A DNA stretch of 63,991 bases, filler included, from Stramenopiles sp. TOSAG23-2 (lineage: Eukaryota), in the NCBI GenBank assembly GCA_900128395.1. It is 3 parts of 3 records of this genome, joined end to end, with 100 filler letters (N's around TTAATTAATTAA, not from the genome) between each part and the next. Parts side by side here need not be neighbours in the genome. Positions count along the whole stretch, not along the records: positions 1 to 21,914 come from LT649523.1; 2 more parts are not named here. One strand, 5' to 3'. Shown here in pieces: positions 2 to 44,019 of the stretch. Numbering within the stretch: position 1 is the stretch's first letter; each line of letters begins with the position of its first letter. The translations under genes were made by a program, and so were the position numbers. The notes under the pieces were generated by a model that worked only from the letters and a program-made list of their open reading frames with translations, was not told the DNA's origin and did no database searches.

Positions 2-3000
2 TGTCCTTTTGATATCAAGGCCTGGGCAAAAGGGGCAGCGGCTATCAAGGAGGGATCCAATGAAGCGTTAAATATTTATAATTCATTTTCAACTAATATT
101 GTCGTTATAGACAAAAATTTTGCCAAGGAAAGAATAAAGGCAATAGGTTTACCACCAGATGCGTTTGTCCAAATTTGCCTTCAACTAGCTTTTTACAGAA
201 TGCATAATTATGTGGCACCAACTTACGAGACGGGAAGCACACGACAATTTTTCCACGGTCGAACGGAGACAATTCGCAGCTGTACGAGGGAGGTCAAAGA
301 TTTTTGTGAAGCAATGGATCAGTTTACTGCTAACGAAAGGGGTAATGCTATTACAGATATTGTGTTAAAAAAATTTGAGCAGGCATTGTCTGCGCATGTT
401 GATTTAACAGTTGACGCAATGTCTGGAAGGGGAATTGACCGTCACTTGCTTGTCCTACAGTTACTAGCCAGTGAAATCGGCCTTGAACATGACTTATTTA
501 CAAACGCATCATTTTTAAAGTCAAAATCATATAGTTTAAGCACGTCAAACATATCTTCCAGTGGTTGGAATGCTAAAGATAATGAATGGGCAGTTGGTTA
601 CTTCCCAGCAATGATTGATGGATATGGTTGTGCTTACACAATTAGTCCATCATGTATTAAGATAATGGTATCGTCATTTACTGCATCCAAAGAAACTGAT
701 ATATCTAAGTTTGAAGATCAAATTGTAAAAGCAGCTAGTGGGTTATTTGAACTAGGAAAACTACTCCTGTCCAAGAATATTGGTGCCAGCACTAGTAACA
801 ACTCGGGGCAACAAGATCATAATAATAAGAAAAATCCCCTTGAAACGCAGATTACAAACTTATGGCGAAAGGTATTAAAAGTAAAGCCAAGTGAACCAGC
901 ACCTCAAAATTTTTTCGAAGCAGGCGGCGATTCCCTATCTGCAGTTGCATTGCTCCAAACATTAAAAAACTTTTCGGGGTCAACTATTTCATTAACCGCG
1001 TTTTACGGTAAACCTTCTTTGCAATTTTTATTAAGGACAGTCAGGCCAAAAAAGGGAACAAACTTGAAAATTTTTGGCAACAAAGAAACACTGGATAAAT
1101 TATATGAAGGAGTAAATGATGCTCCTCTATCTCATACTGCGCGTGATATTGCGTGGGGGTGTTATACAAATGAACAAGGTAAGCAGGTTGTATATATATA
1201 TGCATTTAAATACACACACTGTAAAGTTGTAAACGTATATATCCTATTTGCGTACATATAATGATGACTAACAAAGACCACATTTACTAGATGCCTCGGA
1301 ATTCAAAAATACTTACAGAAATGCAATTCGCGGTGACGTATGGACTGCGGAAAATTTACATGCGTACATTGAAAGCCTTATTAAAAGATTTCCTGCTCTT
1401 CGCTCAACTGTTTGGTTTAAGGCGAGTGTACCACATGCAAAAATTTATCCAAATGATAATACTTTGGCCTATGACATTGCTCACAGGGCAGTGTTAGAAG
1501 TTGATACCACTGATGGTAAGAAAATCACACCCAGAAAAATCGTTGAATTAACAAAACAAATGATACATGTTATCGACGCAGATAAGGATACATATACTCC
1601 ATTTGCGTTGTGCGTTTTACGCCCGGAAGATATACAATACGAAGGTGGTGATGAGCCACCACCAGTAAATATAGGTGAAAACTACTTTTGGCTTTACATG
1701 TGTACGCATCACGCTATTTTCGACCATACAGGTATACAACATTTCGTACGTGATCTATGCGAAAGCTCAGAAGAATTTAATTTAGGTGGAATTGCAAAGT
1801 CTATCACCCTTTCACAATTGCATGAGTTATCAAGAAATGATTCTGCAAGAGATAGTGATGAAAGTGCAAAAGAATTTTGGAGGAAAGAATACCGTGGATT
1901 TGTGGCCGATCAAACAAAGGGCATTTTTGATGGTCGCCGCATGGAAAGCGAAGGAAGCAGTGGCAAACCGGGAATTACCAAAGCGTTGTCTATTTCGTTG
2001 GATGGTTTAAAAGCGGTATGTAAACGTAATTCATCTTCGATTTTTACTGGTTTAATTGTTGCGACACAGACTGCTCTGGCTCGCCTAGGTGGAGCAGAAA
2101 GTTATACTATTCAGATCCCAGTCTCAATACGGCATGTACTAAGTAGTGTTACAAGCGATAATAAGTACGGTATTTATAGTGCTTTGAACGTTATACCATT
2201 CAAATGTTTAGCAACAGACGCATTGGACGGGTCTCTTGAACGACGTCTAATGGCAGTGAATTTGAAATGGCAAGCATACATGACGAATTTAGCTTTTTCG
2301 TCCTCTACAATTGTTGATATTTTAAGAATCAATGGTCAGATTGATGAAGCTGCTGCCTTGGTTCGATGTCGCCGTGACGTACTTTTAGTCCTAGCGCCAA
2401 CTGAATCCTTAAGGCATCCATTAGTTATACCAGGAACGAATCATTTAGTTTTTCCAACTCCATCGGCTTCAATGGGGATGTCACTTGTGTCAAGCATATT
2501 CACAGGGGTAGACGGCAAAGAATATCTCAAGCTGCATGCTGAATACGATGGCAATAAGGTATCTTTGGGTTTAGCAGAGACTACTATTGAGGCTATGAAA
2601 TCAATCTTAATTGCTTTTGACGCAGCAGAGAATAAGGGAGAATCGATTAATTTATATCGAAATTCGATACCTACAGATATGATTTTTACAACAACTCAAC
2701 AACGTTTATCGCGGTTATCACTACAGTATACTTCAGATAAAAACTTTCTAGAAGAAGCAAACAACCTTTACCAGTATGGAGAATCTATGTACAGCCTCGT
2801 CTGTAATTCCGAAGACAGTGTTAACATTGCATTGATTGAGGCTGTGGACGGAGATAAGGCTGGTTTAGGAAAAGGAAAAGGAATAGAGACAACTTACAGA
2901 GCATTGTTGTCGAAAGTTTTTGCCTTATCTCAGAAATTGAAAGAACTGTTTCCCAGGTCTAATACTGGAGAAATGCAAGTGGTGGTGTTAGATCTTTCTG

Positions 3001-6000
3001 ATACCATGTATCTGTATATCGCTATGCTTGCAGTGTCGCATGCGGGATTTACATTTGTTCCGGCGGACAGAAAGTGGGTAAAAAGCAATGTTGAACATGT
3101 AAGAAATACACTAAGTGATTCTATTGTTGCTGTGATTAAATTGCAAAATCAAGAGGCCAGAGATTTTGGAACAACAAATGTATTATCTATCGATCATATT
3201 GTTGATGGAATCACAAATGTAGACGACTCTGATAATACATGTGCGTATATTGTGGAACCCGATGATATTGCGTATATTTTATTTACATCTGGATCAACAG
3301 GTACTCCAAAAGCATGTAGAATTACCAATTTTAACATTGTTAGTATGATTCGATCACAGCAAATGTATGTTTACAAGCCGTGCAAAGATGACATTATTTT
3401 ACACTTGTGCTCCCCTCTCTTTGATGCTTTTTTGGAAGAGACATTTTTGGCACTAGCCCAGGGTGGAACTCTCGTTCTCCCGGCTTCAGAAGAGGAACGA
3501 ATAAGTGCATCTGGGATTAGGAGGCTAATATCTACGCATGATGTAACAATAATATCAACAGTACCCGCAATACTAGACCTTTTGACGCCTGATGACGTTA
3601 AAGGATTGAACTTAATTATATCTGGGGGAGATGTATTACGACAAGCTACTGTAAATATTCTTATGGGAAGCAGCGATTCTTTGCGTATCATAAATACGTA
3701 TGGCCCAACAGAGACCACAATAGTAGCTACGTATGCAGAATGCATAAAAGGGGTAACGCCTTCTATAGGAAAGCCTTTTCCAGGAGTTGGTGTTGCACTT
3801 GTCAACCAGAAATATGGTCATCCTTGTAAAAATTTCGAAGTAGGAGAGATTGTAATTAGGGGGATTGGCTTAACACCAGGGTATGTATTGGCGAAGGAAA
3901 ATAGTGGATTTAGAAGTTGCCAAGGAGCTCCCGCTTATTGGACCGGAGATTTGGCATGGCGAGACAGAAAGGGTGATATTTGGTTTTGTGGTCGAGCTGA
4001 TCGCCAATTAAAAATTAATGGGGTACGATTTGATCTCTCAGAAATTGACCATGTTTGCATGGCTGTACCAGGCTTGCAAGAAGTTCGAACCATTGCAGTA
4101 AAAAACAAAGGTGGTAAAGATACTGCTAAGTTAGTGACATTCGTGGTGCCCGCAAGTTGCAGGCCCTTTTGTGAAAGTATGTTCGTAAAACAGTTACCTT
4201 ACTTCAAACGCCCTGTTTTAGTGGTTGGGGTAAATATATTACCAAGAAATAAAACGCAAACTAAAGTAGATGTCAAAGCTTTGACTCAAATGGCCAAGAA
4301 ATTAATTTCAAATATAAAGGAAAAAGATTTGGAACCACAACCCAGAAATGAAAGCGGCGCCAAGATGTTCCAAAAATTGATGACAGAACCGGTTGCATTG
4401 TTGTTAAATGCACTGAACATTGTTCTCGGGACAACATTTTCTGAATCAATTCTTGAAAAAACTTTTTTGTCTCTTGGGGGAGACTCGTTAAAAGGCGCAC
4501 AATTGTCGGAGGGGTTGAAAAAATACGGATTAAAGTGTAAATTAGAGTTGTTGATGTCTCACACACCCCTTTCTGGCATTTTAGAGAATTCTTCGAGCAA
4601 TAGTTCTGTTACATTTAACCTAAAAGACGAGAAATACACATCGACTGATGCATTTCAAACAGGAAAAGCATCTCCGCTACAAAGAAGTATGTGGTATCTA
4701 GAAAAGTTAGGAGACACTTCCTATGTAATATCGGAAATTTTTAATTTAGAATCAATTAATGCGCAAAACAAGTTAAGTATTGACAAAATTAAAATAGCAT
4801 GGAATTGCGTTGTCGAACGTCATGTTTTATTGACAGCCACTTTTCTTGAAAAACTTGATTCGAAAACAAATCAACCTATTTTGTATTGGGATGCAGTGAG
4901 TGGCAGAGTAACAAATACCGAAAGAAATTGGTTTAATGTTGTCAAAATGAAACCAGGAACAACGGAAGATGCTATTCTCTCTAAAGTTAACTCTATAGTA
5001 AATTGTAATTTGAAAATGACTAATGATGCCTTGTTTCGGATAAATTTAATTGTATTAGAAGACGAACAGAAAAAAATAGAAGTCAGCAAAATGGTGGTTA
5101 CTGTTCATCATGCCATTTTTGATGGCGCTTCGTTTGATGTGCTGTATAAAGATTTTAGCTTCTATTACGCCGCGTCTGGATCACAATCAAACTTGAATAC
5201 TCTATTGCCACCTTTAAATGTACAATTTGGCAAATGGTGTCTTGAGACCCAGAGATTTGAGAATTCAAAAGAATTCAAAGATTGTCTTGATTGGTGGGAC
5301 AAAAATTTAGAAGATTCGTTTTCAAATTTGGGGTTGCCATATGAAGATACAAAAGTTAACAACGCCAAAAATGTTCAGGCTCCGGCAAGAGATGTTGTTT
5401 ATAAAGTTGGCTCAAAGCTATCAGAGCGATTTAAAGTCGCAGTTCAAAAGCTTGAAACAACAACATTTGGTCTTCTTTATGCTATATTTGCTTCGGTGTT
5501 ACACCGCATTGGAGATGTTACTGATATAGTTATAGGTACACCTGTAAGTGTTCGTAACGACGATGGTACATATGGACTATGTGGGCCATTCATAAATACA
5601 ATACCATTACGGGTCCAACTTGACAGTGAAAGGGATACTTTTTTTGATTTGGTAAAAAAGTGTCTTAGTACTACTATCCGAGGCACCCTCCACTCTGCAA
5701 CGCCTTACGCAGACATTCTAAGAAAAACAATGGTGATGTCAAAAAGTGTATCATTATTTGATATACTTTTTTCCATCGATTATCAAAGTGAAAATTTAAA
5801 ACTCGACCAGCAATGTCCAGAACAAATAACGGTGAATAGGACACTATATTCAAATAGATCGATGACTGTTTTTATTAATATGCACAAGGATGATATTGCT
5901 GTTAGGGTAGTCTATTCAAAATGCGTAGGTTTTGGGCTTGCAAATGCTATTGCCTCTCAAACCGGATTTCTTATTGGCGAAGTGGTAAAGAATATTGGTG

Positions 6001-9000
6001 GACTTCGTAATACACTTGTTGCTGAGTTGCCACTTCACGACGACGCGTCAGAGTATTGGAACTGGAGAGAGAAAGCAAATCCAGTTGTACCCCTAACACC
6101 TGCGAAAGATGCTTCCTTAATTATGATGTTCCACAATACTGTCATGAGAACGCCAAATGCATATGCAGTCTTATCAGAGGAAAAATGCTTGACTTATCAA
6201 GAAGTGTGGGATGCGGTAGAAACGGTAGCTCTCGCTATAATCAGTTCCATGAATTCAGATTTAAAAGAAGAGGATCACTTTGTTCCCGTTTTGATCAAGA
6301 AAGGCTGGAGACAAACCATCGCAATACTTGCCATTTTGAGGGCTGACTGTGTTTTTGTGGTACTTGATACAAAAAGCCCTTTGACACGCAATGCTACTGT
6401 TATGAATCATTGCGAGGCCATTGCAGTATTGACATGTAACAAGCACGAAAAAAATATTCCTGGTGGATTTAACGTTATTCTTATGGATAATTTGGACCTC
6501 CTAAAAAATACGGCAGAATTTGAAAATAAATTGAAATGGCCCCCTGCTCGCGACGGCGACAGTTTGGCATACGTTTTATATACGTCTGGATCTACTGGCG
6601 TTCCAAAGGGGTGTATGATTACCCATAGTGGAGTATTAAATACAGTAAAAGACATAAATAAAAGATTTCAAGCTACGGCAGACGATAGAACTCTCTCAAT
6701 TTCAAAGCTAGGTTTTGATTTATCCATGTACGATACCTTCGGTATTTGGGAAATCGGTGGGGCCATTATTTATCCCAAAGAATTTAGTAGACTGGGATGG
6801 CTCGAAGCTGGAAAAAAATTTCAGGCAACACTTTGGAACACTGTGCCTGCCCTGATGGGTATCATGTTGGATGATCAAACTTTTGGAGCAAGTGAAACAA
6901 TTAGTTGTGCTGATGTTCCGTTAAAAGCCGCAATTTTAAGTGGTGATTGGATACCTTTATCAACGCCAGATAAAATTTTCAATATATGGCCAGATATATA
7001 TTTAACATCGGGCGGGGGAGCTACAGAAGCTTCTATTTGGAGTATATTGTATCCTATTCCATCAAACAAAACGTTGCGGGAAAAATGGAGGTCTGTACCA
7101 TATGGAATTCCGATGTCACACCAGCACTTTTATGTGCTCGATCCAAGTTTCAAACCATGTCCAGCTTACGTTACTGGGGAACTTTATATAGCTGGCGATG
7201 GCGTAGCAAAGGGTTACTTGCGGGATGAACGAAGTGCAAAGGCATTTTTCCCACATCCAGAGACTGGGGAATGGATTTATAAGACTGGGGATAAGGGGCG
7301 TTTTGTTAGCGACGGTTATTATTTTGAATTTCTAGGGCGCATAAAAAATAATGAACAGGTAAAAATTAACGGACTAAGAATAGAGTTGGGGGCAATAGAA
7401 AATATTCTAGAAATGCATGGGTTGGTGAAAAAGGCGGCATGCATAGTAGCCGGTGCTGAAGCGTCAAAAAGGTCACTTCACGCGTATGTTACATTGAAAT
7501 TAAAAAACGATGAAATAAACGAGACAACGGGCTCTGATTTTGCTCAGAGCTTGATCGATCACGTTTCCAAACACGAACAAGCTTATCTTGTGCCTCGTAT
7601 AATTCACATAATAGACAGTATGCCATTATCAGGAAATGGCAAGGTTTTGAAAAACGCTTTATCAAAATGTCCAGTAGTGTATTTGCATGAACGCAAGTCA
7701 AAAAAGGGAGGGAAAATGAATGCGAAACACACGCAAATGATTTCCCTGTGGACATCAGCGATTGGAAAAGAGATTGACGAGGAAGAAGAAAATCTTCATT
7801 CTGGGATGGATTTTTTTTCTGACTTTGGTGGCACTTCGTTGCAGGCAATGTCACTTGTTACACGGTTAAAAATAGTGTACTCAGTAGAAGATATTTCGGT
7901 CATTGATCTTTTTGATTACAGTACTCTTGAAAAGTTAGTCGAGTTCCTTGAATCGAAAGGAGCAGTATTTAAGGGTGAAACTGCATTGATTCAATCCGAC
8001 GAAACATTAACACCGATGTCAAACAATAGCCTATTTTTGAAATTAGGAATGTTCTCAGCTGCAGATCCATTTCAAAGTTGGTTATGGAATGAATCAAAAA
8101 GTTTAGCTATGATTGGGGGTGACGATAACCCAGCCCAGTATAATTGCGTGCGCATATTTAAGATTTCACCAAAAATAAAATTGCTTCCGATGACAGTTGC
8201 TGCAACAGCCGTTGCAAGTCGCCATGAAGTTTTACGAAGTAACTTTAAAGTATCAGATAAAAGCAATCAGTTGCAACGAGTCATAGTTTCAAGTATTGAT
8301 TCTGACGAAAACATTGTTTCCTATTCGATATCAAAAACAACAAAAGCAGCACTGACATGGATCGCTAATGTTACGGGTCAACACTTCACATCACGTACTA
8401 GTCTATTTAAAGTTCTGGTAAGCGACTTCATTCAAAATGGTGAAAACGAGGGGAACACCAATTTCAGTATTGCTGCGGTTGTAACGCACCATGCCATTGT
8501 GGACGACGAAGCATTTGGCATTATTTTCAAAGATTTACAAAAAGCTTATACATCAGCGCTTGCAGACGTTGACTTTGAATCCGTATTTAATTCCCTTCCC
8601 TCCAGCGTTCTTCCTTCTACAGTGTACGACTGGCTAGATAACATCTATTTAAATGGGAAAGAAGCACAGGAACTTGATTATTGGGGTAGGAAATTGTTAA
8701 AAGCGCCAACTCACGTTGATTTACCATACGCTTACCCTGTAGAAACTGACACCGATACTTTGGGGGGAGCTGTAGACCGTAAAGCTGAATCAAGTGTACT
8801 ATCATCAGTCGATGAAATTTGCGCTAAATACCAGGTTTCAAGAGCGGTTGTCTTACTAGCATCGTTTGCCATGACCATTTCGCGCCACACTGGGTGCAAC
8901 GATTTATTGATTGCCTTGCCTATATCTTTAAGAAAAGGCAAATCGTTTGAAAGGTATGTTGGCAATTTAATTAACGTTGCAATTGTCAGAATGACCACTC

Positions 9001-12000
9001 ACGATACAATGTCGGTTGGGCAATTTTTAATGTATACCAGAAAAACGTTGAGCGAAGCTATTGAGAATTCTATGGTTCCGTTCAATAAAGTTATGCAACA
9101 TTTAAAAACCACGAAAATATGGCGTGGGCAAGGTCGTTCAAATAGGGACAATCCTCTTAGAATAATGTTTAGCTACGTCACATCTGATGTTGAGGCTCAA
9201 AACGAAGGTAGCAAAGGGGTAAGCAACGAGAGCTGGGGTAGGCAAGAAGAAATATTTTTACCAGCAGAGACTTCAAAGTATGATTTATCACTTTTCGCCA
9301 CACTCCAAACGAACGGCAATAAGAGTCACGACGAAACGCTTCGTTGGAGCCTTGACTACCGTGCTAAGTGTTTTTCTAATTTTCAATGTAGAAGAATGCT
9401 TGATTTATACGAGTACACTGTCAATTTATTTGTATCGTTACCAAGTAACCGACTGATTGAATCTGTTGATTTGTTGGGAAATATTGGCGATAACACAGTG
9501 TGTAAAGTCAGTAATTTAATTGAAAGTTTGAGTACACAAACGGTACAAGTAACCTGTCCACTGTCATCGGAATTAAAAGCTTCAAATTGTACCAGTATTG
9601 GCGACTTAATATTCACAGCATTTAAAACTCGCTCTAATCCAAATGTGCTACGAGAAAATCGAGGATTCAAAGGAAATGGGGGTTCGGGTGATTTTGTTTT
9701 GAATACAGAAGAATTTGTGAACGCCGTTGGTCATGTTTCAACAGCACTAAGTGAAGCAGGTGTAACAAAGTCGTCTGTAGTAGCTGTTGAAATCGGAAGA
9801 AGTATGGCTCTAATCATTGTTATGTTGGCAACATGGAAATGCGGTGGTGTGTTTATGCCTATAGGAAATAAGTCAGGAAAAACATTTCGAGATCGTGCAT
9901 GTTCCACTGCCGGGGTTTCTGTAATTATATCAGAAAGCACTGTTAATGAGCGTTGGGGCGCGGCGTTGAATCTACCAGGTATATATGTGCCAAAAATTTT
10001 CATAACTGTTAGGCCTACGGCAAATATTGTACAAACTATTATTAATGAAGATACTGCGTATATATTGTTTACCTCCGGTTCAACTGGGAAACCTAAGGGA
10101 ATAGCAGTATCCCACAGTAATATAATAAACTATGCACTGACATCATGTGATTTGTATTGCAATGAGGGTATTAACAACAATAAAACTGTACCGCTGCTTG
10201 GAGAACCAACTTTTGATGCCACGTTTACCAGTATGATAGTTCCATTATTAGCAGACTGTACAACACATATAGTTCCACCTTCGATAAATGGTTTAGGCCT
10301 TTTCCTAGAAAATAGTTTGCTTAGTAATGAGTGGGTATTTGCAAAGTTGACTCCGGGCCAACTTCGTCATGCTATTGCTGCTGCAAAACCTTCGTCAAGT
10401 GTAATGTCTAAATTGCTAGTACTTGGAGGAGAAGCATTAAAACTAGACGATGTAACATCTTTGGGAAACCTTGAAAATGCGCAAGACATCATAATTTATA
10501 ATGAATATGGACCTACTGAAGCTACTGTGGCCTGTGCGGCCTTCCGGGCATCCGTGGGTGAAATAATTGCGAAATGGGGTAATTCTATTTCTAAGACTGT
10601 TCCATTTGGACGCAGTATTGCTGGGGCTGGGTTGCTTGTTTTGGACCATAAATTCCACCGCGTTCCAGAAGGTTGTTCCGGTGAATTGTTTGTTCGCGGC
10701 CCGTGTCTTTCTCAGGGTTACATTGGGGCCATCGCGGAAAAAGATAAACATAGATTTATTACCTTGAAAGACGGGCAGCAATACTATCGCACCGGTGATT
10801 TGGTACGCTGGACTGTGTCATTGGAAGAGAACAAAGGAAACGGCGATAGTAGTAATCCCTACGAACTGACAATAAACAACAGTCAATTGGAATTTATTTC
10901 TCGGGTTCACACGGATATTAAAATTCGCGGTATGAGGGTCAACAAGGAAGCTGTTGCCGCGCTTTTAAAATCACAACCAGGTGTTGTTTCTTGTACCGTT
11001 TTTGCTCCGTCGGATATCTATTTCATTGCTGCTTGTTATCTAAAGGATGATTTTAAGACGCACCGGGAATTAGAAAGTATGGAAAAAGAGTTTAAAATTA
11101 TTTGCCAATCTTCATTGCCATCGTGGATGGTACCTAGAGTGCGGGTTTTGTCGGGAACAGCGCCTTTAACTAAACATGGAAAAGTTGACGTGAAAGCTAT
11201 AAAAAGTCTTTTGAAGGATAGATTGGATGACATGGAATCAGAACTAGATGATGTCGATAGCTTGAAGAAAATCCAATCCTTGCTTCTGGATCTATGGAAA
11301 CGAGTGCTTAAACTAGAAAAAGTGGATTCAAGTGATGATTGGTACAGCCTAGGAGGGAACTCAATCCAGTTTGCTCAGCTCCAATTTCTGGGGAAAAAAC
11401 AAGGTTTAAAATTAAGCAGCAATGATATAGATTTGGGTATGTCACTAAACGAGATGGCAATTACTCTTCACAAATTTGAAAATCGACAGAAACAACTTCC
11501 AGATATTCGATCAAGTGTCAAACGAGCCTCTAGATTAAGTATGAATAGTTTTAACTTAAACTCATTGGGTGTGGACACTCTTAATGATGAATTTCCCCTC
11601 TCGCCAATTCAGCGTTGGTTTGTCGCAAAAGATTATGCGAAAGGGGCTAATAAAAATGTATTTACCCAAGACTTCGTGATTGATTGTCACCCATCTTTTT
11701 TTGCAACAGATTCAGAAATCGAACCCTTTGCCGCAGTAAAGAAGGCATTAAATACACTAGTAATGCAACACAAAAATTTGCGGGCACGGTTTAATTTATC
11801 TAACCCTACTAATCAAAATAAGTCTGTTTGCGAAATTTTGCCATATGACGACGATGTATATACAATTAAACATGTTACTCTTGACATTACTGGAAATAAA
11901 TCTGTAACCGAAACGGAAGCTCGGAAGTGTATATACCGCGAGAAAAATAAGTGGCATCAGTACATAGCTTTAGACGTAACCACTGGTCCTGTTTTTGCTG

Positions 12001-14606
12001 GTGTACTGTTGTCTATAAATAATTTTCATTTTTTGATCCTTGTAGCACATCACATGGTTGTTGATTGGGTATCATGGTACTTTGTGAAGGATAGTTTTTT
12101 AGAATATTTAAACTTGGTTTTAAATGACAAAGAACTTCCTTTATCCATCGAAGATGAAATTGATGAAATAGAATCAGACAATAATAATTATGCAACGTAT
12201 TGCAATATTATAAATAGTGATTACATTGTGGAAAAAGCGTTAAAGAATGCATGGCATTGGAAAACAGCAATAAATGCTGGTGTAGTGAATAATAATAATA
12301 TTATCTCTAGAATGAAAAATAAATGTTACAGTGGACAAGGGGTTGATTTCAAACCAGCGCGCTGCAAATTAACGCTTCCATTGCGAGAAACAAACTGGAT
12401 CTACAAATATTTAGAGAGAAACACGGAAAACAAGTTGAACAGTATGATGACGATAGAAAATTTGATTATAGTGGCAATGTATATTGTCGAGATAAAGGAG
12501 AAAAATGTTAGCTCTAATTCGAACACATCCAAGTCTAGTAACAATGGTTTATACCTCATGTTAGAGCATAATGGTCGAAAAAGCAAAGTCAAAGGTATTG
12601 ATACCAGTGGTGTTATTGGTTGGTTTACCACACGTTATCCGATATTTATGGGTACCGATGATGAACTAGTTAACGGCCAAGTCACATTAAAAGTAATTGA
12701 GAAAACATTGGAGATATTGAAATCATGCAAGTCAAAAACTCCGTTGGCAGAAATGGAATACAGCATTTTGGCAGATTATAGTAACGAAATGGACAGTGCA
12801 AGATCGTTAGGGGTGAGGGGGAAAGAACCTTTGGTCACTTTGAATTATTTAGGTAATGTTGATTCAGATATGAATTTGGACGTATCCACTGGTATCGATC
12901 TTGTATTTGATCGCGGAAGCCAAAAATGCATGGATTTTCTGGCATGGTCCGTTGTGGGCGGCCCTTTGACGTTTGAAGTACTTTATAGCAATAACTTTTA
13001 CGACAGCGAATCGATTAAAAACTCTTTTAGCGATTTTATCAACACACTAAGTACCATGTGTCGCTTATTAGTGAATGTACCGGACAGTGTAGCCACATTT
13101 CAAGATCCATTATTCAGGGAATCAAAGGTTGAATATATTATGCCTACATCACCACTGCAACACAAGTGGTTATTGCAATCTCATTTTGACTCGGTTTATA
13201 TAAAGGAGAACATAAAGTTACATCATTTACAAAACATTTATGAATTAAAGGCTGCCGATACGCCAAGTGTTGTTTTAGATAATTTGAAATCTGGATGGTA
13301 CGAAGCAACAAAAATATTTCCAATACTTCGCACACATGCAGTTATACACCCAACCAATCCAGGGATGTCAATTTTACGTATTTTAAAAGCTGAATATTTT
13401 TCAATATTTTCAAAATGGACTTTATTGGTTGATGGCAACACAAGTTTGAAGGATGTTCTGAATCAACAAAGGCAGGAGCAGTTTACAATCGACAAAGGGC
13501 CTCCATGGCGGTTTACGCTTGTGAAAGATATAAAGTCAGCAAAACTTTACCTAATTATTGAAATGCACCACGCACTACTAGATGCGGCTATGCGAAGAAT
13601 TATTTGGCCAACGGTACTACGTCACATGAAAGTTCCATGGGAAACCGAAAACATATTCTCTAAAAGTGTTACAGGAGACCAATCATTGGTTCATCTTACT
13701 TGTATAAATATAGAGAGGAAAACTGATAAATTGAAAGAAATCGAACGCTATGTTAATTCCGTTGAAACCACATTATTGGAAAGTAGCAACAGTTGCATTG
13801 TTAGAATGAGCAACTTCTTGCGAATGCCGGAGGGCCTAAGCAATAGAGTTCATTTTGTAGAAAAAGATGGAGCATCTCATGCATCTTTTATTGTGGAAAG
13901 TAAAGTTATTGAAAAATTAAAAGCATTTGCACGAACTTCGAAAGTATCTATGAGTGATGTTTTTCACGGTATCTATGGTGCTACACTTTTAAGACTTGGG
14001 ATAACAACAGGAATGTCTGAAGGTTCACCAAGATTGAGAATTGGTGCACGTAGACGAGGATTGACTGTCGAAGAATTTGATAAAATACTTGAAACAAAAT
14101 TTCGAGTTACTGGATTTTGCACTTACGTCTCATGTAGGCACAATAATTCCCTTCAAGAAAGTTCAAAAATGGCGTGGCCGTTAATATCAAATTGCCCGGT
14201 ACTTGTTGGTGCAATGGAAGAGGAAACATCTTTGATTGATATATGTAAAAGTATTTGTAATCAACGCCATGCCAGGAGACAATATGAATTCAATATGCAC
14301 CCAGGCATGTCCAGTATACTAGAGACACTTGGTAGGGATTCATGCGCAATGGTATACAATGAAAACGAAACTTCACTGTTAAGTGAAAGGGAAACAATAA
14401 GTATTAACAATTCAAATGGAGACAGTCCATTTTTTGAGATGAAACTGGTCGATTCGATTGAACCTGTTTCATATAGATTCTTGTTGAATATAAATCTATG
14501 TAAAGATTGTTGTGAAATTGCGGTACAATATAATAAAAACAACGACAAATGTGGAAGTGCAATGATTATAAAAGAAATTTACGAAATCTTATGCAATGAT
14601 TTATAA
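2..14606 (+). CDS. Multimodular NRPS, 5'-incomplete: carnitine/choline O-acyltransferase-T-C-A-T-C-A-T-C-A-T-E-C. Exons 2..1178 and 1291..14606, >4830 aa
   Basis: The frame is open from nt 2 and contains acyltransferase motifs PDAFVQICLQLAFYR, TYETGSTRQFFHGRTETIRS, GIDRHLL, LSTSN and GYGCAY. Four carrier-domain serines: GGDS (932), GGDS (4485), GGTS (7836), GGNS (11361). C-domain cores: HHAIFD (1707), HHAIFDG (5106), HHAIVD (8487), HHALLD (13566). Three A-domain TSGSTGxPK motifs at about 3273, 6570 and 10059. E-domain motifs PIQRWF, HHMVVDWVSW (12048), GWFTTRYP and NYLG. Splicing the 1179-1290 intron joins the 353-aa and 4380-aa ORFs in frame. Confidence 0.93.
1179..1290 (+). other. Spliceosomal intron (112 nt, phase 1) inside the first condensation domain of the NRPS
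   Basis: Donor CAAG|GTAAGC, branch point TGACTAAC at 1265-1272, acceptor TTTACTAG|AT. Splicing joins the C1 motif APLSHTARDIAW to the C2-like motif LIKRFPALRST and continues into the 4380-aa frame. Confidence 0.9.
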
Positions 14607-15632: not shown

Positions 15633-18600
15633 TTATACACTTTGTTGTACGGCATGCATCGTTTTGTATCTTCCATTTTCACGAGTCATCAATTCCTTAT
15701 GATTTCCACGTTCCATAATTTCGCCTTGATGCATCACAATGATTTCATTATAGTTTGCAATTGTACTTAATCGATGAGCAACTGCAATTGTTATACAAGA
15801 CTTTCCTAATCGATTAAATGCTTCGACAATAATCCTTTCCCCTTTAGGATCCAATGCCGACGTTGCTTCGTCCAACAAAAGAAGTTTTGGTTTTGTTAAA
15901 AACAGACGAGCAATAGCAATCCTTTGCTGTTGCCCACCAGATAATTTACTACCCTTTTTACCTACCGCTTTCGAATCATCTATACCAATTAATGTGCCAT
16001 TCGGCTTACCCGTTGGAAGCGTAAAGTCCAAGTTTACAAAATCACTTGCATTTGACATATTAATAGAATGTTTAAATTTTTCTTCCGAAACTAAACGCTT
16101 ACGACCACCCCAGAAGAAGTCGCCGTCTTCAATTCCATATGTAACATTTTCGTATATCGATCTAGAAAAAATAACTGGTTTTTGCGTTACGCAGCCAACA
16201 GATTTGTAGTACTCATCTAATGGCAATGTACTAATATCCTTCCCGTTGATCATTATTTTACCACGATTCAACTCATAATTTGTCTTTGTCTTTAGCTCAT
16301 ATTGACGCAAAAGCAAACATAGAATTGTACTTTTCCCAGAACCAGACGCGCCAATGAGAGCGATTTTCTCTCCAGTGACAGCAGAGAAAGTAACGCCTTT
16401 TAGTACTTGTCGGGTTGATTTTGGATATGAAAAGAAGACATTTTTACATTCAATTTTAGTATCATCACTTTTTCCATTTTTTTTTTCTTCTTCATCATCA
16501 ACAGCAATACTACTACGCTTAACTGCAATTGTCTTTAATTGATATTTTATTTGTTTCTTATTACATAAAACATTGTATACTCGACACGCTATTCGTTCAA
16601 CTGATATAATTTTCGGCCCTGTATCAGCCATTAAAATAAAATTATTACATATAACCTGTTTTGTGTGCAATATTATGTCGAATATTTGTATACTATGTTA
16701 GCATATATTTCGCATTATAAAAATAAATAAAGATAGTAGATGAAGAGAAACATACGAACGAAGCAAATGCATATACTGTTAATTGACCAGGCTTCAATTC
16801 GCCTATACTTTCAACATACCCTGCATATGCCATTCCTACACATGCAGTTGCCATCATAACATGTATTTGCATTGAAGTACAAAATGTAGAAATTAGAGCC
16901 ATCATGTTTCCAATATTTACATGTTTGCGTATAACTTCCATAGATTTTTTTTTTTCGTCTTCTTGTCGTCGAAATAAAAAGACTGTTTCCAGGAAGTCAA
17001 TTATCTCGCCAGTGTATGAACCAAGTTCATCTTGCACAGCGTTATATTTTACAGTGTATGTCTGCAATAATTTAAATTGGATACGATTCCACACCAACGT
17101 AACTGAAACTAAGAATAGAAGCATTATACTAAGTCTTACATTGATCATAAAGACTAACACCAAACCGGAGATCACTTCTGTCAGTGGGGTAAATGAATTT
17201 GTTATTTCTTGTAGCCCTGGCCTTGTTACCAATTCACATTCTTCAGTAATACATCTCCGCATTTTCGCTGTGTCCGTCTCTTCTAACTCTTGTAAAGTCG
17301 AATTCAGATAAGAATTAAAAATTTTGGTCCTTAACTCGAAAGAGTACAAAACTAAACCTCTCCCGAACATCGCCTTTTCAGTAAACATGCACAATCCTTT
17401 CATAGCAATAAAACCAATATAAATAAGGGCGTTTTCAAGTTGGCCCCCTTTACCTGTAAAGTCTGTTCCTTGTACATTTCCGTTAACTAATTTCGATAAA
17501 TAACTCAATGAAATTATTTGTATAACACCTTCAAGAATTGAAAATAATACACCTACAAACATATACTTGTAAAATCCAAATGAATGTTGGGGTACAACAT
17601 TTCCAAAAAAAGATGGCCATTTCTCAATCTGCACCTCCATATTGCCGCTGGTTTCTGAGGATAATGTAGATTCATTAATAAGACAAAACACTTCTTCTAA
17701 CGTGTTTTCATCAAATTCAAAATTTCCAACCTGCATATTAAACAAGGGCGTCCATAACCATAAAATGATTAAAAAATTCACTGTGACCAAAGCAGCAGTA
17801 ATCCATGGATAAGTATTTTTTTCTTCCATCCCAACAAATGCAAATAATTTTGAAACATTAAACCCAAAACGTATCAAGTAAAACAGACGAACAAAACCTG
17901 GCACTCGCCTGCTAGTAGAGGTCGATATTTCGATAACTAAAATTGAAGATATAATGCAAGGGGCCATCAACCAATTTAGCTCACTGCATCTTTCACAACC
18001 CTGGAATTCCACAACAGTACTTGCAATGATCAAAAGCGTAAGATCAACCGTTAACAAAATAAATTTTAATATTTTATGACATGTTTTATTTTTATAATTG
18101 CAAGCAGTATTTACATCGCTACTATCATATATATTATCAAAATGTATTGTTAAATGCTTTTTAACATCAAGCGTCGATGGCAAAAAATACAAGCGTCTGC
18201 CCGTAATAACCAACCAAAATAATACAAATATCAACAGTGTTATTTGGTTGCCTGCTGAAAAATACGCCATTGAATCCAATGCGTGTTTCCTTTCAAATAG
18301 CGATGATATCCCCCCACCGGGGTTGTGAACGATATCAACTACGAGTCCTATCAAAATAGTCATCGCAAGAAATGATATCAGTGGCTTCAAAGTTTTTGTA
18401 GTAATTTTTTTGTGTGTATTCTGTTCATGCGCAATTTTGATATGTTTCATCACTGCATCTGATAAAATTGGTGTCAAACTTGAATCATAGCCAAAGTGCA
18501 CGCCATCAAGGGGTGCATTTATCCTGCTACTATGACCGCTAGTTCTCCTCCTCCCGTCAATATTGTCTTCACGATCATTAGCCCCAAGAGTAGATGGGAA

Positions 18601-18684
18601 AACCCTTGATTCTTGCGATTCCCTGCTGAATGACGACAACAACGGTATGCTTATAGAGTCGAACCTGCTTGAACGAAAAGACAT
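15633..18684 (-). CDS. ABCB-type half ABC transporter (N-terminal extra TM region + TMD + NBD). Exons 18684..16756 and 16655..15633, about 983 aa
   Basis: Walker A GASGSGKST, Q-loop VTQKPVIF, signature LSGGQQQRIAIAR, Walker B LLLDEATSALD and H-switch VAHRLSTI. The upstream ORF supplies the TM helices. The 100-nt intron 16755..16656 (GTATGT...GCTAAC...AACAG) is phase 0 and fuses the two ORFs in frame (YAFASF|VICNNF). Confidence 0.9.
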
Positions 18685-18865
18685 TTCACTACTATGCGTG
18701 CCTCAACAACTACGTCTACCATGACTATAGTCCTTTTTATTTCAATTAAATATTAGTCTATCTAGATCTATTAATATGTGTGTGTAGTAGTATATAGTAG
18801 TATTTAGTAATTATAAATCGACGAAAAAGTAGAGAGGATCCCCTCGACGAAAAAGCAGCCACTCG

Positions 18866-21914: not shown

Positions 21915-22014
21915 NNNNNNNNNNNNNNNNNNNNNNNNNNNNNNNNNNNNNNNNNNNNTTAATTAATTAANNNNNNNNNNNNNNNNNNNNNNNNNNNNNN
22001 NNNNNNNNNNNNNN
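21915..22014. other. Artificial contig-joining spacer
   Basis: 44 N + TTAATTAATTAA (stops in all six frames) + 44 N. Confidence 0.97.
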
Positions 22015-25487: not shown

Positions 25488-28400
25488 TCAAACAAACGCC
25501 TTATTCGTCACCACATCACTTTCACTTCTTTTCTTTGCCACGCTCCCTCCCATTAAATTTTTCGCACTTTTAATTTTTAAAAATGCATGGGACCATCCTT
25601 TGTTTTTACCCAAACGCATGTATTGACGAAATGTAGATTTACTTTCTATCCTTTTATTGTCAAAATGCACTGCCAAATGTGTGATTTCACGTTTCAATTC
25701 TTTCGTTTCTTCTTTGCCATTGCTGTCATCATCATCTACTAAAATTTGGAATGTCCAATTACTGCTTTCACCAACGGATGGTTTTAATCGTAAACAAAAT
25801 ATTGAATTCTTATTTTCAAATGTTTCCGCAACAAAATTATCATCCAATCTAATCAATTTAATAACTTTCTTCCGTTTGTTATCATCTATTACTTTTGCTA
25901 ATACTAAAATATCTTTAAAGACATATAAACAATATGCACCGTCTTTCTCTACTCCTTCAATGTCCTCCATTATTTTCACACGAGCGACAGTTTGATATAC
26001 ATGATTGGATAATATATCAGCATCAAATCCAAATTCATATTGTACTAATGATTTATCTTTCAATATTTCGCACATATCTTTCCATCTATCAACTTGCGTG
26101 GATAAAACTTTAATTTGCTCGTATGCTTCTAACCAATTATCATAGTCATCATGGAATTTTGGCGTAAAATCAAAGATCACTTCAATTTTTGCAGCAAAAT
26201 TTACAACATGTGATATTGGCAAATACAAGTATGAAAATAAATTCATTTTTGATTTTGTATTTGCATCCGCTTCATAAAATACGCGATATGCAATTTGTTT
26301 CTCTTCCCCTTTGCATAAAGTGGACATTCTATCTAATAAATTTTTGAATTTCATCGTATACGTGACATGGTGTCTAAATGCAGGTATTAAATCTAAAATT
26401 AATTCCCCTACAACTTTTGAAGCTAATTCTGCATTGTCAGATATACCTGCATCGTCTAATGAATTGATGAATCCTTTATGTATCCGTATGACATGCCTGA
26501 AATTATTCAGCCATAAATGCAAGCGATGAGACAATGATTTTGGATTTGATATATGCTCATCTTCAAGTTTTATATCACACAATGGTTTAAAGTATATTTC
26601 CCAAGCAGTTTCAATATCATTTAAAAATGCTTGTTCGAATTTTACCACTTCGTTTACCAATAACGAGCGTTTTTGCATAGAGATCGGAGTCATCTCTCCA
26701 AGAATGTTTTGATCTGTTCCACCATGAATAGTTGTAGTGGTTGCTGGTGCATCTGATCCAACTTTTATCGTCAATCCTCGCTTTCTAAATGTATGCGGTT
26801 CCTCTCCTTCCTTCTTATTTTCAACTCCAACTTTCCCAGATTCTTCGCCTTCTTCTTTGCCTTCTTCAACCTCTGCAATAACATCTTCCTTTGATATACC
26901 TTTGCTCTCCTCTTTTTCAATTTGTTTTCGTTCTTGTCTTAATCGTTTTTCTTCCTCTTCCTCTTCTATTTTCTTTTGTATCGTGATGAAATCTTCTTCA
27001 ACTCGACCCATCGTCGATAAAATTGATTTTAAATTGGAAACATCCCCTTGTACTTTTTTAATATCATTTTGTACATTCACACTAACTTCTTTCAACGACG
27101 TGATTGTCCCATCGATACTTTCATCTTTGATATTGTTGTTTCGTAATGCGTGATTGAGATCCTCAATTCTTTCATTCATACTTTTCGCAAATAGCTCAAG
27201 CTCATGCTCAATCATTCTAACACTATACTCACTCGCTTCAATTCTTTCTTCTTTATCTAATTTGATTTTCGACTCTTTTAAAAGAGCAATTATATGTGCT
27301 GTTTTATCAGCTTTGCTTTGTTGTACGTTTAAATTTGGATTTCGTTTATCACGTTGTTGTTTCATCCAAGCAGAAACCCACAGCGTTGCAGTGTGTTCAT
27401 CAATATATCTTTTCGCAGTGAAATACCTTTGTACATGTTCGCGAAATTTCATGCCGACTTTTCGCCTCAGTTTTCTGACTTTTTCCATACGATTGATCCA
27501 ATCCGATTCTTGTTTTCCAGCGAAATCGGCAAATGTTTTAGATGGAACACCCGATGCTTCCTCCTCGACTAATTTTCCAATTGGGCCCAACATTGCCATT
27601 ACTTCTAATTGTGCAATGGCTATTTTATCTGGGCGCCGCGGTGGAACAATAGCACCGAAGACACCACCAGGTCCAGTAACAACTTCTTTCGAACCACCAA
27701 CGTCAGTACATACTACTGGAAGACCTGCAAGGCCAGCTTCACCAAGTGCTAATGGCAAACCTTCCGATAATGACGAATTTAAAAAGATCCATCCTTCCGT
27801 CAAAACTAGTTTTGCATTGCCAAAACCACATAAAAAAACGTTGGAACCTAAATTATTTGATGAGATTAAATCTCTACATTCCGACGTATATGCAACGTCC
27901 TTATCCAACGACCCATAAATTTTTAATCTATATTTCGTAATTTTATACACATTAACAATAATAGCAGCAGCTTGAATTGCATCTTTAACTCCTTTTAATT
28001 CATATACGTGTGACAACATGACGACTGTTGGTAGTTGTGCTTCATTATCGCGCAAGACAACAAAGCGATTTGTTTCCATCCCATTGATTACTGGAAATAT
28101 CTTTCGTCTCATCATGACCTCTAAACCATTATTGCCACGCAAAGAGCCCATCCACGCTTCCCAAGACACATTTGTCTCGCAACAAGGAACAATACAATCA
28201 GCACTATTGAATACTACATGAACGCATAACCTATTCAAACCAATAAGTGCATTTCTAGCAAATAATGGGAATCCGCGAAATCCAGAGATTGCCCTTAGGC
28301 GCTCTCTCCATAATACACCGTGATCCCATACAGCAAGCGATGTACCTCGCTTTTCTTTCGCAACAACTGCTAATATCGTTTGTATGCCATGATGTGTTGC

Positions 28401-31400
28401 ATGTGCAACAGGAATATCATAATCTGGCAAAGGACACGATAAAATTTCCAGAAAATGTATGAACAACGATAAAGCCATATTAAAATCCTCAAGTTGAGGA
28501 TCTTCGCATGTCATCATCGGGTGTTGACCTTCTGCATTTGCAACCATCACGTCATGCAACACTTTCCACTGCTTCATCCACGCTTGCCTGACTAATTTAT
28601 GTTCCCAAGATGTTTGCCAATCAAAATGTTGAAAATAGGTCCATAAGTTTACGAAATTTTGCGTGTACGAGGCAACTTCTACTTCTGTAAATACGCTTTT
28701 TGCGCAGCCAACAGCAAGTTTTTGTACCATTGGAACAAAATATGTTTTTATTACATCATCGGTTGTTTTATAAACTTCCATCTGCATCTTACAGACTGGT
28801 TGATCACCTCGAACAGTTTCATACGGCGAACCAAAATCGTTTCCCCAAAGTGGTACAAAGTTAATTGTTTCCACATTTTCCTCCACTTGATATGATTTTT
28901 GTACAACTTTCATATCATTACCAACTTCAGCAACCATATTCCATGCCACATTTTGAACGTGCATGACGACATCGCGTCTGCAAGATGCAACGCCACCGCC
29001 ATCCATTGGCCAAGTGCCGCTATCTAATCCTAAAACTCGTAAATGGGTAAAACTTTTATCTTCATCTTCCCCGTCATCAGATGTCTTCTTCGTATTTTGT
29101 GCAATGTTAATGGATTCCCCACCACGTCCCATAATTTCTAAATCACTCAATCTCATGGCTAATCTACTTCGAACTCCAGGGAGGGGCTTAATGTAAGTAG
29201 CACTTAAGATTCCACCCATATCTTTTCTCAATGCATCGACAGCATCATCCGTTTTGCATGAATCTCGTAATTTCCAATAGTCCTTTAACGTGGGCTCATC
29301 GCGTAATAAGAATTCATCCAAAAGTTGGCAATGAATACCTGCTAATTTACCATGCTCGGTATTCCACATCTCCCACAACGACGTCCGTTTGACTCCCGTC
29401 CGTTTGTTACCAGTTTTAAAATGTATTTTTCTCGATTTCTTCAGGTAACATGTTTTCCAAGATCGATGCTGCTGTAAACGTTGCAAACTATACAACGCAA
29501 TATCATCATTGTATACATTCGATGCTGATTCTTTTTGTGAGAAATTATCTTTCAATAAATTTTCATTTACACCAATTAATCCATATGGATCATCTTTCAC
29601 AAATGATGGGATCTCGTGCTCAATTTCATACGTTATCTCTTTTGTTTTTCTTCGCCTGCGATATGCCGTTTGTCTCTCAGCGGCTGTATCAACTAATTTC
29701 AATTGACTCGTAGTATGTCCCAATGTTTTCTTATGTTGTTTTTTCTCATCACGGGATAAATTACGAGTTAAAGTTTTTTTCTTCGCACTCATTCCCTCCG
29801 TTGCACTTCGTTGTCGCATACTTAGACCTCTATTATGAAAACTTACCTTACTAAATTTTCGCGAGCTTCTACTCAAATCTCCAGAAAGAGTTGTACTATT
29901 AACGTTTATGGCATCCGTAAATTCTTCAGATAATTCATTCATGAAATTTTTTGATTTTCGCATCATGCTATTAAATCGGTTTTTCACGCTAGATCGTTTT
30001 GAACTCCGGTCCTTTTTCTCCGTCTCCTCTTCATCAGGAACTTCGATTCTTTCACGGGTTAATTTCACGGTTTTCGTACTCGGTTCTTTCGCATGACGGT
30101 ATGTAAATTTAGTTAAAAAGATATCATTATCCCATCGAAACATAACACTTTGAACGCGGCTTGTTAAAAATCGTTCACCATCTTTAGTATGATGATGATT
30201 TACAACCAGGGTCCAATTATCCCGTTTACACTCGTATACTGATCTATATGCATAACTGCGAGCGGGGTGGTGACTCTCATCATGAAAATAACTCGCTTTG
30301 ATCTCTACCATATCATTCAATTCATCTTCAATTTCTTGATTACTTTTATCAGTCATCGTTATGACAGATCTTTTAGAGGTGACTGAAAATTTATGAGCTC
30401 CCAACCCCGCAATGCCACCGCGATTTTTACTCATTTCTTCATCTTTTTTACTAGCTCGCATTTTGCTCTTTCTCATTGCTAATGCTTCTTCAGGGCTTAA
30501 TTTTATTTTCAACATTTCCGATCTATGTTCTTTAAATGCAATTTTAATCCCTTCCTCAATTTTTGCTCTCCAATTCATTGATTCAACGGTAGACTTAATC
30601 ATGAATTGCAATATATCACGTTTATCTCTAAGACTGTACAATGATGAAAATGGTATTCCATTATTCTTATGCCTTCCACTATGATCTTTCCAAACTAAAC
30701 CTGTCAAGTCAAATTTGCTTTCAAACGCTTTTGAATCATCTCGAAATGCAACATCAGAACGATAATAAAATAATGGACCATTTGGTGGCAAGACGAAGAA
30801 ACGCTTTGACCATCTGCTGTATCCATAGCGTCTTATTGTGCGACACTCGAACCACCCCATAGTTAACAATTCTTCCTGTTTTGAATTGTCTCCAGCCTTT
30901 TTCTTACCATAATGTTTGCTATCATGGCCAACTTTAAACATTCCATGTCTCCTTTTGAATATATTTGCTTTTATAATTCTACCTTCCTTATCATAGAATT
31001 CCTTCTCGATCAGCAGACCCTGGTTATCAACAATTTCTACACCAGATGGACATATTTCATATTCATGCGAATATTCAAAAAATTTCTCTTGCTCTACCTT
31101 TCCTTTTTTATAGATAATTTGTTTTTCTAGTCGTCCGAATGGCAACTTCGATCCCCCATCATTTCTTTCTGCATAAAACGTTTCTGACATTAATGCGGCC
31201 TTTGTTTTTTTAACTATCTCCTCTCCTTTAGGTAAATATGCGCTACCAAATTTTTGATTGCCGGATATTATTTTATTACGCAATTGCTCGTATTGCCTAA
31301 CAACCGTATTTCCTGTTCTAGTTTTATCAAAGTATCCAACACGACATAGTCGTACACTTTCATCCAATACGCAAAATAATTTATGACTTTCACCAAAAAA

Positions 31401-37757: not shown

Positions 37758-37857
37758 GTCAACCGTACATAATTTCTTAATACTTAAACTTTTTCAATAA
37801 TATTATTACTAATTGATATTACACATCCAGGATCACCAATGAGTATACCGTTAAGTA

Positions 37858-38325
37858 TTATGTATTTCTATTATTATTATTATTATTATTATCATTGTCC
37901 ATTTCTAGTTCCTCACTTAAATTTAATAACATTTTTGCATCATTTTTAAATGAGTCCGCCTCGTCGATCGTACCAAAATATTTTACAACTTTCTTTACTT
38001 TAGACAATCTAACTTTGAGATCCTCTGTTGATAAAAATTTTAATTTTTCTTCCATTTTGGAGTCAATGGATGCAGGTGTATTAACATTATACAATCCATG
38101 AAAAGAATGTTTTTTATCACTTAAATTTTCTAAACCATGTTTTGCTAAAATATCTTTCTTTTTCTTTTCATCTTCAATAATTTTTTCAAAGGATTTCAAT
38201 GCTTCTTTTCTTTCTAAATATTTGGACCAATTATAGAAAACAATAAGAATCCCTGTGATTGTTAAGAAAAATGTTAACGATGCATAATATCTACCTTCGT
38301 TATGATATGCATATTGTTCATCCAT
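37858..38325 (-). CDS. Small single-pass membrane protein (hypothetical)
   Basis: 155-aa ATG ORF with a hydrophobic helix YYASLTFFLTITGILIVFY and a poly-Asn tail; it stops 100 nt before the GT4 start codon. Confidence 0.6.
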   Translation of the reverse strand: MDEQYAYHNEGRYYASLTFFLTITGILIVFYNWSKYLERKEALKSFEKIIEDEKKKKDILAKHGLENLSDKKHSFHGLYNVNTPASIDSKMEEKLKFLSTEDLKVRLSKVKKVVKYFGTIDEADSFKNDAKMLLNLSEELEMDNDNNNNNNNRNT

Positions 38326-43919: not shown

Positions 43920-44019
43920 NNNNNNNNNNNNNNNNNNNNNNNNNNNNNNNNNNNNNNNNNNNNTTAATTAATTAANNNNNNNNNNNNNNNNNNNNNNNNN
44001 NNNNNNNNNNNNNNNNNNN
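43920..44019. other. Artificial contig-joining spacer
   Basis: 44 N + TTAATTAATTAA + 44 N, identical to 21915-22014. Confidence 0.97.

Follow-up and report, generated by a model that had tools for sequence, protein, structure and literature searches.

Introduction

Carnitine acyltransferase (cAT) domains have been described in megasynthases at the C-terminus of fungal highly reducing polyketide synthases (HR-PKSs), as the initial annotation of the DNA studied here had rightly stated. According to one report, they follow the acyl carrier protein (ACP), act on its thioester and offload the chain to polyols or glucinol, as in Tv6-931, LtbA and MaPKS17a (PMC10901484). Here we describe a gene in a 63,991-nucleotide stretch of DNA (hereafter the window) from the assembly of Stramenopiles sp. 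TOSAG23-2 (GCA_900128395.1), in which the C-terminal half of a cAT domain is followed by a carrier (thiolation, T) domain, T0, and by a nonribosomal peptide synthetase (NRPS) line. Like the fungal examples, it is a Carn_acyltransf domain placed in a carrier-based assembly line, with a predicted action on a carrier thioester and with a catalytic His that is kept in P0084, a metagenome protein probably encoded by the same gene. Unlike them, it precedes its carrier, belongs to an NRPS line, occurs in a marine protist host and is proposed to work in the loading direction. Judging from its sequence, we give an even chance to the reading that cAT-T0 is a loading didomain, which would move an acyl group from acyl-carnitine, or from acyl-coenzyme A (acyl-CoA) via bound carnitine, onto T0.

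The domain belongs to the same family as the free-standing enzymes CrAT, CROT and CPT2 (PDB 1nm8, 1ndb, 1xl7 and 2h4t), and its carnitine-site and CoA-site residues, as well as the catalytic His of P0084, align with theirs. The nearest free-standing relatives share 44-49% identity with it and end in SKL. Where the free-standing enzymes have their C-terminal targeting signal, this one continues through a linker into a carrier domain and 4400 residues of NRPS.

On the synthetase side, the lines for echinocandin (EcdA/EcdI) and emericellamide (EasA/EasC/EasD) reportedly start with T0-C, where T0 is loaded in trans by an acyl-AMP ligase or an acyltransferase and C is a condensation domain. EcdA and EasA resemble the present gene in that a first carrier without an adenylation (A) domain is followed at once by a C domain that attaches, or here would attach, the acyl group to the first residue of the peptide. 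They differ in that the present line has a cAT-family domain in cis, with no loader gene among the neighbouring ORFs scanned. Bacteria use acyltransferase-carrier loaders such as GNAT-ACP of the CurA/PedI type and AT_L-ACP_L, as well as starter C domains. The proposed cAT loader would share with the bacterial loaders the transfer of an acyl group from a soluble carrier onto the first carrier domain without ATP, and would differ from them in its protein family and in its donor, which is probably the O-ester acyl-carnitine and not acyl-CoA only. To our knowledge, the known NRPS starts (starter C domains, acyl-AMP ligase plus carrier, and GNAT/AT loaders) all use an adenylate or a thioester, and a start from the acyl-carnitine pool, as predicted from this sequence, may be a route so far undescribed. 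We put forward only tentatively that cAT-T0 represents a novel type of starter module for NRPS lines, for which the O-ester acyl-carnitine would serve as the priming donor instead of an adenylate or a CoA thioester.

Results

The carnitine acyltransferase domain

The window starts inside the reading frame, and the N-terminal half of the cAT domain, with the catalytic His, lies 5' of it. The half that is present matches Pfam Carn_acyltransf (PF00755) at residues 13-242 (profile positions 357-573 of 574; 215.6 bits, E 1.7e-63, cut-off 22.3) and solved carnitine acyltransferase structures at E 1e-36 to 1e-45. In alignments to rat choline acetyltransferase (ChAT) and nine relatives, the domain keeps the residues aligned to CrAT K419, K423, D430, Y452, E453, T465 (in GRTETIR) and R518 (in IDRH), and the STS motif (LSTSN) is kept as well. 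The segment FAKERIKAIGLPPD (FAK-ERIK-...PPD) and the TYE motif align without gaps to ChAT/CrAT-type sequences at K419, K423, D430 and E453. Where rat ChAT (1t1u) has GRVDNIR and IDNH, the same alignment gives GRTETIR and IDRH for the window, which upholds the claim that GRTETIRS (nt 257-280) is the carnitine-type variant of this motif. Thr465 and Arg518 reportedly bind the carnitine carboxylate (Jogl and Tong 2003; Cronin 1998).

K419 and K423 are the lysines that bind the 3'-phosphate of CoA, and D430 and E453 are the pantetheine-site pair, as given in a review that also describes how carnitine and CoA each reach the catalytic His343 through a channel of their own, from opposite sides, and how this His deprotonates the carnitine hydroxyl or the CoA thiol (PMC11852590). 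Since both 3'-phosphate lysines are kept, the enzyme can probably still use free CoA or acyl-CoA. By prediction, the domain looks active and canonical. The position of Met564, which reportedly gates chain length (Hsiao 2004), is Val followed by Gly. This pair matches neither the CrAT-type sequences of the alignment, such as a CrAT-like fly protein with Met-Ala, nor the Gly-Gly type found in CPT1 and the SKL-ending relatives. The "lipopeptide" of the initial annotation is thus a putative product only.

The best relatives of the domain are P0085 (49% identity), P0086, P0089 and the Cafeteria protein P0004, with ends in SKL or AKL. Such a C-terminus is the consensus of the peroxisomal signal PTS1. 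Among the metagenome loci covered, the closest non-self one, L001 (44% identity), holds a complete, single-exon cAT in one open reading frame (ORF) at 4750-6777 and no synthase nearby; this cAT adjoins a dynein heavy chain gene (7537-12768), and hence comes from a flagellated relative. In its sequence, the window's cAT looks like a housekeeping carnitine acyltransferase of the peroxisomal type whose targeting signal was lost to the fusion.

The catalytic His, which the initial annotation had left to be confirmed upstream, is found outside the window in the metagenome protein P0084 (533 aa, from a 1602-nt ORF on a contig of 3889 nt). P0084 is identical to the window's cAT at 256 of 256 residues and adds 268 residues upstream of the window; it covers positions 101-573 of PF00755 (378.2 bits), with about 100 N-terminal profile positions still missing. 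Its motif GNHGVAD contains a His that aligns with the catalytic His of ChAT (EHSPFD) and relatives, and the Glu before this His is replaced by Asn, likewise in the free-standing P0085. The shared sequence suggests that P0084 and the window's cAT are probably the same gene. A search for loci related to P0084 in metagenome, viral and genome contigs gave no relative.

The first carrier and condensation domains

T0 follows about 40 residues after cAT in the same frame and is recognized as Pfam PP-binding (PF00550) at residues 283-343 (41.8 bits, E 1.3e-10). The serine of its GGDS motif is residue 311, and "Ser 932" of the initial annotation corresponds to its codon at 932-934. In NCBIfam, the best partial matches of T0 are the T domains of NRPS and aminoadipate reductase models, and a protein-atlas search with cAT-T0 reached a best score of 0.79, which is a lead only.

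No A domain accompanies T0, and a C domain (C1) with an intact HHxxxD motif comes directly after it. The distance from the T0 serine to the HH of C1 is 221 aa, vs 207 aa for T1-C2 and 217 aa for T2-C3. T0 must be a donor carrier that is loaded by something, because it lacks its own A domain and is followed by a C domain with HHxxxD at normal spacing. A first carrier without an A domain and with a C domain next is the arrangement that defines T0-C lipoinitiation, and it is found here with a C1 that is divergent. By hhalign, the C-terminal subdomain of C1 matches an alignment of the four other C-type domains of the gene (probability 44%, E 2.4e-4), and by protein-atlas features it scores 0.98, 29 of its 30 hits being to Condensation clusters. 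A PDB sequence search with C1 returned 0 hits at E<=1, a word search among long proteins (with residues 1-620 of the NRPS exon) no hit, and NCBIfam nothing meaningful for C1 or the terminal C domain, while a single-sequence AlphaFold2 model of C1 was unusable (mean predicted local distance difference test score 34.4). On the strength of its motif, spacing and profile similarity, we regard C1 as a genuine condensation domain, though a divergent one.

Intron and evidence for a single polypeptide

Frame 2 is open over 2-1261, with an unspliced stop at 1259-1261, and the second exon is a 4444-codon frame that runs to 14606. Removal of the intron between them (Table 1) joins G (1178) to AT (1291-1292), which gives Asp and one open frame to 14606. 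The spliced product within the window has 4830 residues with every core motif intact, and its complete domain order is cAT-T0-C1-A1-T1-C2-A2-T2-C3-A3-T3-E-C(terminal), where E is an epimerization domain, before the stop codon at 14604-14606. Pfam scans and motifs thereby agree with the order cAT-T0-(intron)-C-(A-T)x3 given by the initial annotation.

Introns were scanned for as GTAWG...YTAAC...AG elements that give an open frame when 300 nt of flank per side are joined. Five elements were found, and only the intron at 1179-1290 and one of 100 nt at 16755-16656 (minus strand) sit where two separate ORFs meet; the remaining three fall within frames that are open anyway. The 100-nt intron joins two ORFs of an ATP-binding cassette (ABC) transporter, and since this is the same type of element, the host uses GTAWG/YTAAC introns. 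Without splicing, the first Met of the NRPS frame is residue 97, which lies inside C1.

RNA contigs from four libraries with at least 99% identity to the window, in which DNA may also occur, fall on both exons. Those of X15 cover 199-806, those of X16 716-866, 1349-1635 and 3006-3156, those of X18 859-1009, 1766-1958 and 2680-2899, and those of X17 cover 3201-4000 in pieces. Record 3 of X16 (716-866) shows no differences from the window and bridges the end of cAT to the start of T0. From the intron signals and the open frame, we infer that cAT-T0 through the terminal C domain is one polypeptide.

The linker between cAT and T0 (window 775-820) was seen in at least three versions: that of the window, with which X16 record 3 agrees, that of P0084 and that of X15 record 2. 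In P0084, the 256 identical residues are followed by a Ser-to-Asn change, two identical residues and then CKEGLP vs IGASTSNN in the window. The linker is polymorphic or prone to misassembly, and in one variant the fusion is not seen.

Search for the same architecture

A protein search with cAT against 1.84 billion representatives gave 7543 hits, of which the best 150 were considered. None of these 150 exceeds 1276 residues. More than one matched stretch was present in seven of them, and none of the six inspected (P0086-P0088 by eye; P0097, P0100 and P0116 by Pfam; P0121 was left out) joins cAT to a carrier. PF00550 was found in 0 of 81 cAT hits of 687-2000 residues. PF00755, in turn, is absent from all 120 NRPS relatives listed, whose lengths are 2444-7777 residues. 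Metagenome contigs, scanned by alignment, yielded 80 cAT loci. In 64 of these (hand count) the contig reaches 400 nt or more beyond the downstream end of the match, and a local carrier-domain hidden Markov model and tblastn found a carrier downstream of cAT in none of the 64. Carriers occur in four of the 80 loci (L040, L052, L053 and L069), always upstream of cAT, in a polyketide synthase (PKS) gene that ends in ketoreductase (KR) and T domains.

These four loci share a bacterial layout in which a PKS without thioesterase is followed by cAT and then by Abhydrolase_3, as seen by Pfam in L052 (1-7212) and L069 (3-7667), the only two that were scanned, and by coordinates in L040 and L053. With KS for ketosynthase and AT for acyltransferase, the PKS reads A-T-KS-KR-T in L069 and KS-AT-KR-T in the 5'-open ORF of L052. 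The cAT of the operon is free-standing and full length (590 aa, Pfam E ~1e-170) and keeps GRTETIR and DRH. By analogy, it may be a trans-acting off-loader akin to the fungal PKS cAT domains.

In the literature passages covered, megasynthase cAT domains were found at the C-terminus of fungal HR-PKSs only (PMC10901484; PMC8582187). NRPS/PKS proteins that combine cAT and C-methyltransferase (C-MT) domains are mentioned in a survey from 2008 (PMC2613160). Within the 64-kb window, the 19 other ORFs scanned contain no stand-alone AMP-ligase, fatty acyl-AMP ligase (FAAL) or PKS gene, and no window ORF scanned has a KS or AT domain; the fungal HR-PKS order, with cAT last, is not the one found here.

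Discussion

Proposed mechanism and its alternatives

From the observed domain order, motifs, conserved residues and intron signals, we infer what the putative loading didomain would do at each catalytic step, which donor and chain length it would use and what product the line would make. The pantetheine arm of a carrier is chemically the business end of CoA. In our model, the arm of T0 would occupy the CoA tunnel of cAT instead of CoA itself, and the donor would therefore sit in the carnitine channel, as His343 has two opposite channels. The catalytic His would then move the acyl group from acyl-carnitine in the opposite tunnel to the T0 thiol, just as the enzyme normally works in its reverse direction. 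Given that the CoA 3'-phosphate lysines are kept, the same site could probably also accept acyl-CoA first and leave its acyl group on bound carnitine until T0 enters. C1 would join acyl-S-T0 to the amino acid on T1 through an N-acyl bond, two further modules would lengthen the chain, and the E domain would invert residue 3 to a D-residue. The terminal C domain would release an N-acyl tripeptide, and the neighbouring ABC transporter may export the product. Fungal PKS cAT domains are reported to swap acyl groups between the thiol of a carrier and an alcohol; Tv6-931 also performs the reverse reaction, termed "recapture" (PMC10901484), and the relay over bound carnitine proposed here parallels its release and recapture. 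The second option of the initial annotation, O-acylation of a tethered intermediate, appears less likely, because the residues predicted to bind free carnitine are kept.

Several observations weigh against the loading didomain, and some of them fit other explanations. The N-terminus of cAT (about 100 residues or more) and everything upstream of it are unseen, as the gene extends beyond the window and P0084 starts at Pfam position 101, and cAT may not be the first domain. It might instead be internal, behind upstream modules such as an HR-PKS ending in ACP or an NRPS module, and pass the chain to T0 via an ester, or edit it. In the literature passages covered, the described megasynthase cAT domains all follow an ACP (PMC10901484; PMC8582187), and in 4 of the 80 metagenome loci the gene immediately upstream of cAT is a bacterial PKS with a carrier at its end. 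Nevertheless, we consider an internal cAT unlikely, as its nearest relatives are free-standing single-domain enzymes ending in SKL or AKL, L001 lacks a synthase nearby and there is no positive sign of a PKS, although the P0084 contig with its 3889 nt tells little of the upstream region. Furthermore, no reverse reaction was observed in vitro for the cAT of LtbA, and the megasynthase cAT domains characterised so far are all reported to move the chain off the carrier to an alcohol (PMC10901484). Both points would suit a tailoring or release domain that esterifies the carrier-bound acyl or peptidyl group to carnitine or an alcohol, or O-acylates a hydroxy-amino acid, while T0 is loaded by an enzyme encoded elsewhere. 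Such a role seems quite improbable for a cAT that adjoins the first carrier and not the last, in a line that already ends in a C-like domain able to release the product; no T0 loader was found among the window ORFs scanned, and a T0 that stands before a C1 with HHxxxD requires an acyl group to donate.

Other points against the loading didomain concern the fusion and its parts. The frame of P0084 closes after CKEGLP, before any T0, X15 record 2 leaves the window sequence at 806, inside the linker, and a single locus is known for the cAT-T fusion, with no second example among the proteins and metagenome loci searched. These would be expected if the fusion were not real or not functional, i.e., an assembly join in the low-complexity linker, two separate genes or a decaying remnant. 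We regard this as very unlikely, since X16 record 3, from another study, runs across the cAT-T0 boundary exactly as in the window, no N run lies near cAT-T0, the 4830-codon frame is open with its core motifs intact, and an unspliced NRPS frame with its first Met at residue 97 would cut into C1. None of the RNA contigs of the four libraries covers 1010-1348, so the splice is a prediction, and the Pfam Condensation score of C1 (19.2 bits, E 5.4e-4) is below the cut-off of 30.6. Lastly, bacterial cAT homologues beside PKS genes share GRTETIR and DRH, and the retention of these motifs is therefore weaker evidence for carnitine use.

Downstream modules and genomic setting

Downstream of C1, a Pfam scan of eight in-frame pieces gave the domain map in Table 1. 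The whole gene is a modular NRPS with three AMP-binding domains, four GGxS carriers and five HHxxxD motifs in colinear order. T0, T2 and T3 exceed the Pfam cut-off for PP-binding; T1 is below it (17.3 bits vs 20.8) but has GGDSL. A1, A2 and A3 all carry an FD motif at core A4, where the Asp presumably marks amino-acid substrates. In A2 (~6042-8021), SGGGATEASIW stands in place of the usual NxYGPTE, and core A4 reads FDLSMYD. These A2 motifs appear to resemble those of cysteine-activating A domains in thiazoline-forming lines, yet C2, ahead of A2, has a normal HHxxxD. The HHMVVDWVSW motif after module 3 is presumably of the E type, and the terminal C domain is a probable release domain. The NRPS part has no close relative in the databases searched: among the 120 relatives listed, the best are bacterial, with 22-25% identity.

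Table 1. Features of the cAT-T0-NRPS gene and its neighbour, with positions in the window.
Feature	Position	Strand	Evidence
cAT-T0-NRPS gene	2-14606, 5' end open	+	Frame scan, Pfam, motifs, intron signals
cAT C-terminal half	2-781	+	Pfam PF00755; alignments to rat ChAT and relatives; identity to P0084
Low-complexity cAT-T0 linker (IGASTSNNSGQQDHNNKKN...)	782-847	+	P0084 and X15 record 2 depart; X16 record 3 matches
Carrier (thiolation) domain T0	848-1030	+	Pfam PF00550; phosphopantetheine Ser codon 932-934 in FFEAGGDSLSAV
Spliceosomal intron, 112 nt, phase 1	1179-1290	+	GTAAGC start, GACTAAC branch site, TAG end
Divergent condensation domain C1	1291-2651	+	HHAIFD 1707-1724, hhalign, protein atlas, spacing
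Module 1: A1 ~2874-3884, T1 ~4452-4574 (GGDSL)	2652-4646	+	AMP-binding E 3.3e-55; PP-binding 17.3 bits
Module 2: C2, A2, T2	4647-8021	+	Condensation E 1.6e-43; AMP-binding E 5.4e-66; AMP-binding_C; PP-binding
Module 3: C3, A3, T3 (GGNSI)	8022-11531	+	Condensation E 8e-32; AMP-binding E 3e-40; PP-binding E 9e-5
Probable epimerization domain E (HHMVVDWVSW)	11532-13061	+	Condensation E 1.4e-16; weak TIGR01720, E 1.1e-4
Terminal condensation-like domain (MHHALLD) and stop	13062-14606	+	Condensation 40.8 bits, E 1.5e-10; no carrier after
ABC transporter (transmembrane region and ATPase), convergent with NRPS	15633-18702	-	Pfam ABC_membrane E 3.2e-23, ABC_tran E 5.6e-28

The ABC half-transporter lies about 1 kb from the NRPS stop and is split by its 100-nt intron (16656-16755), which has a GCTAAC branch site. 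It is a plausible candidate exporter of the NRPS product. A Pfam scan of the window ORFs identified further neighbours of cellular eukaryotic type, namely UVSSA, a replication factor C (RFC) subunit, an endonuclease III type protein, a hexosaminidase and a phosphoribosyl pyrophosphate (PRPP) synthetase. The GC content is ~0.27-0.40 along the window, and the stretch is present in marine or seawater metagenomes of 15 studies. An origin from a giant virus was considered and rejected, given the cellular-type neighbour genes and the introns with branch sites. The host is an uncultured marine microbial eukaryote, protist-like, and the gene is nuclear; the eukaryotic neighbours, branch-site introns and marine occurrence all accord with the protist-like setting that the initial annotation had suggested.

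An Rfam scan of the window gave no match. N runs occur at 21915-22014 and 43920-44019 alone, and are probably scaffold gaps. Each consists of a pair of 44-N runs twelve bases apart, far from cAT-T0. On the minus strand, a giant gene at 25488-38400 comprises more than 4100 codons plus an upstream exon and joins DUF3492 and a GT1-type glycosyltransferase with PH and RhoGEF domains, an unusual fusion.

Implications

The locus puts on record that a marine protist which is abundant but uncultured has a large NRPS gene with an intron. If the loading reading is true, the fused cAT would provide an ATP-free route that ties secondary metabolism to the eukaryotic carnitine shuttle, and cAT domains would work as loaders as well as off-loaders. 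As the ancestor of this cAT appears to be of the peroxisomal type, a synthetase primed by acyl-carnitine would draw directly on acyl groups exported from organelles. It could also recapture a chain released as a carnitine ester by a PKS-cAT elsewhere, i.e., a diffusible "carnitine relay" between megasynthases. Finally, cAT-T0 would be a portable loading part for engineered synthetases.

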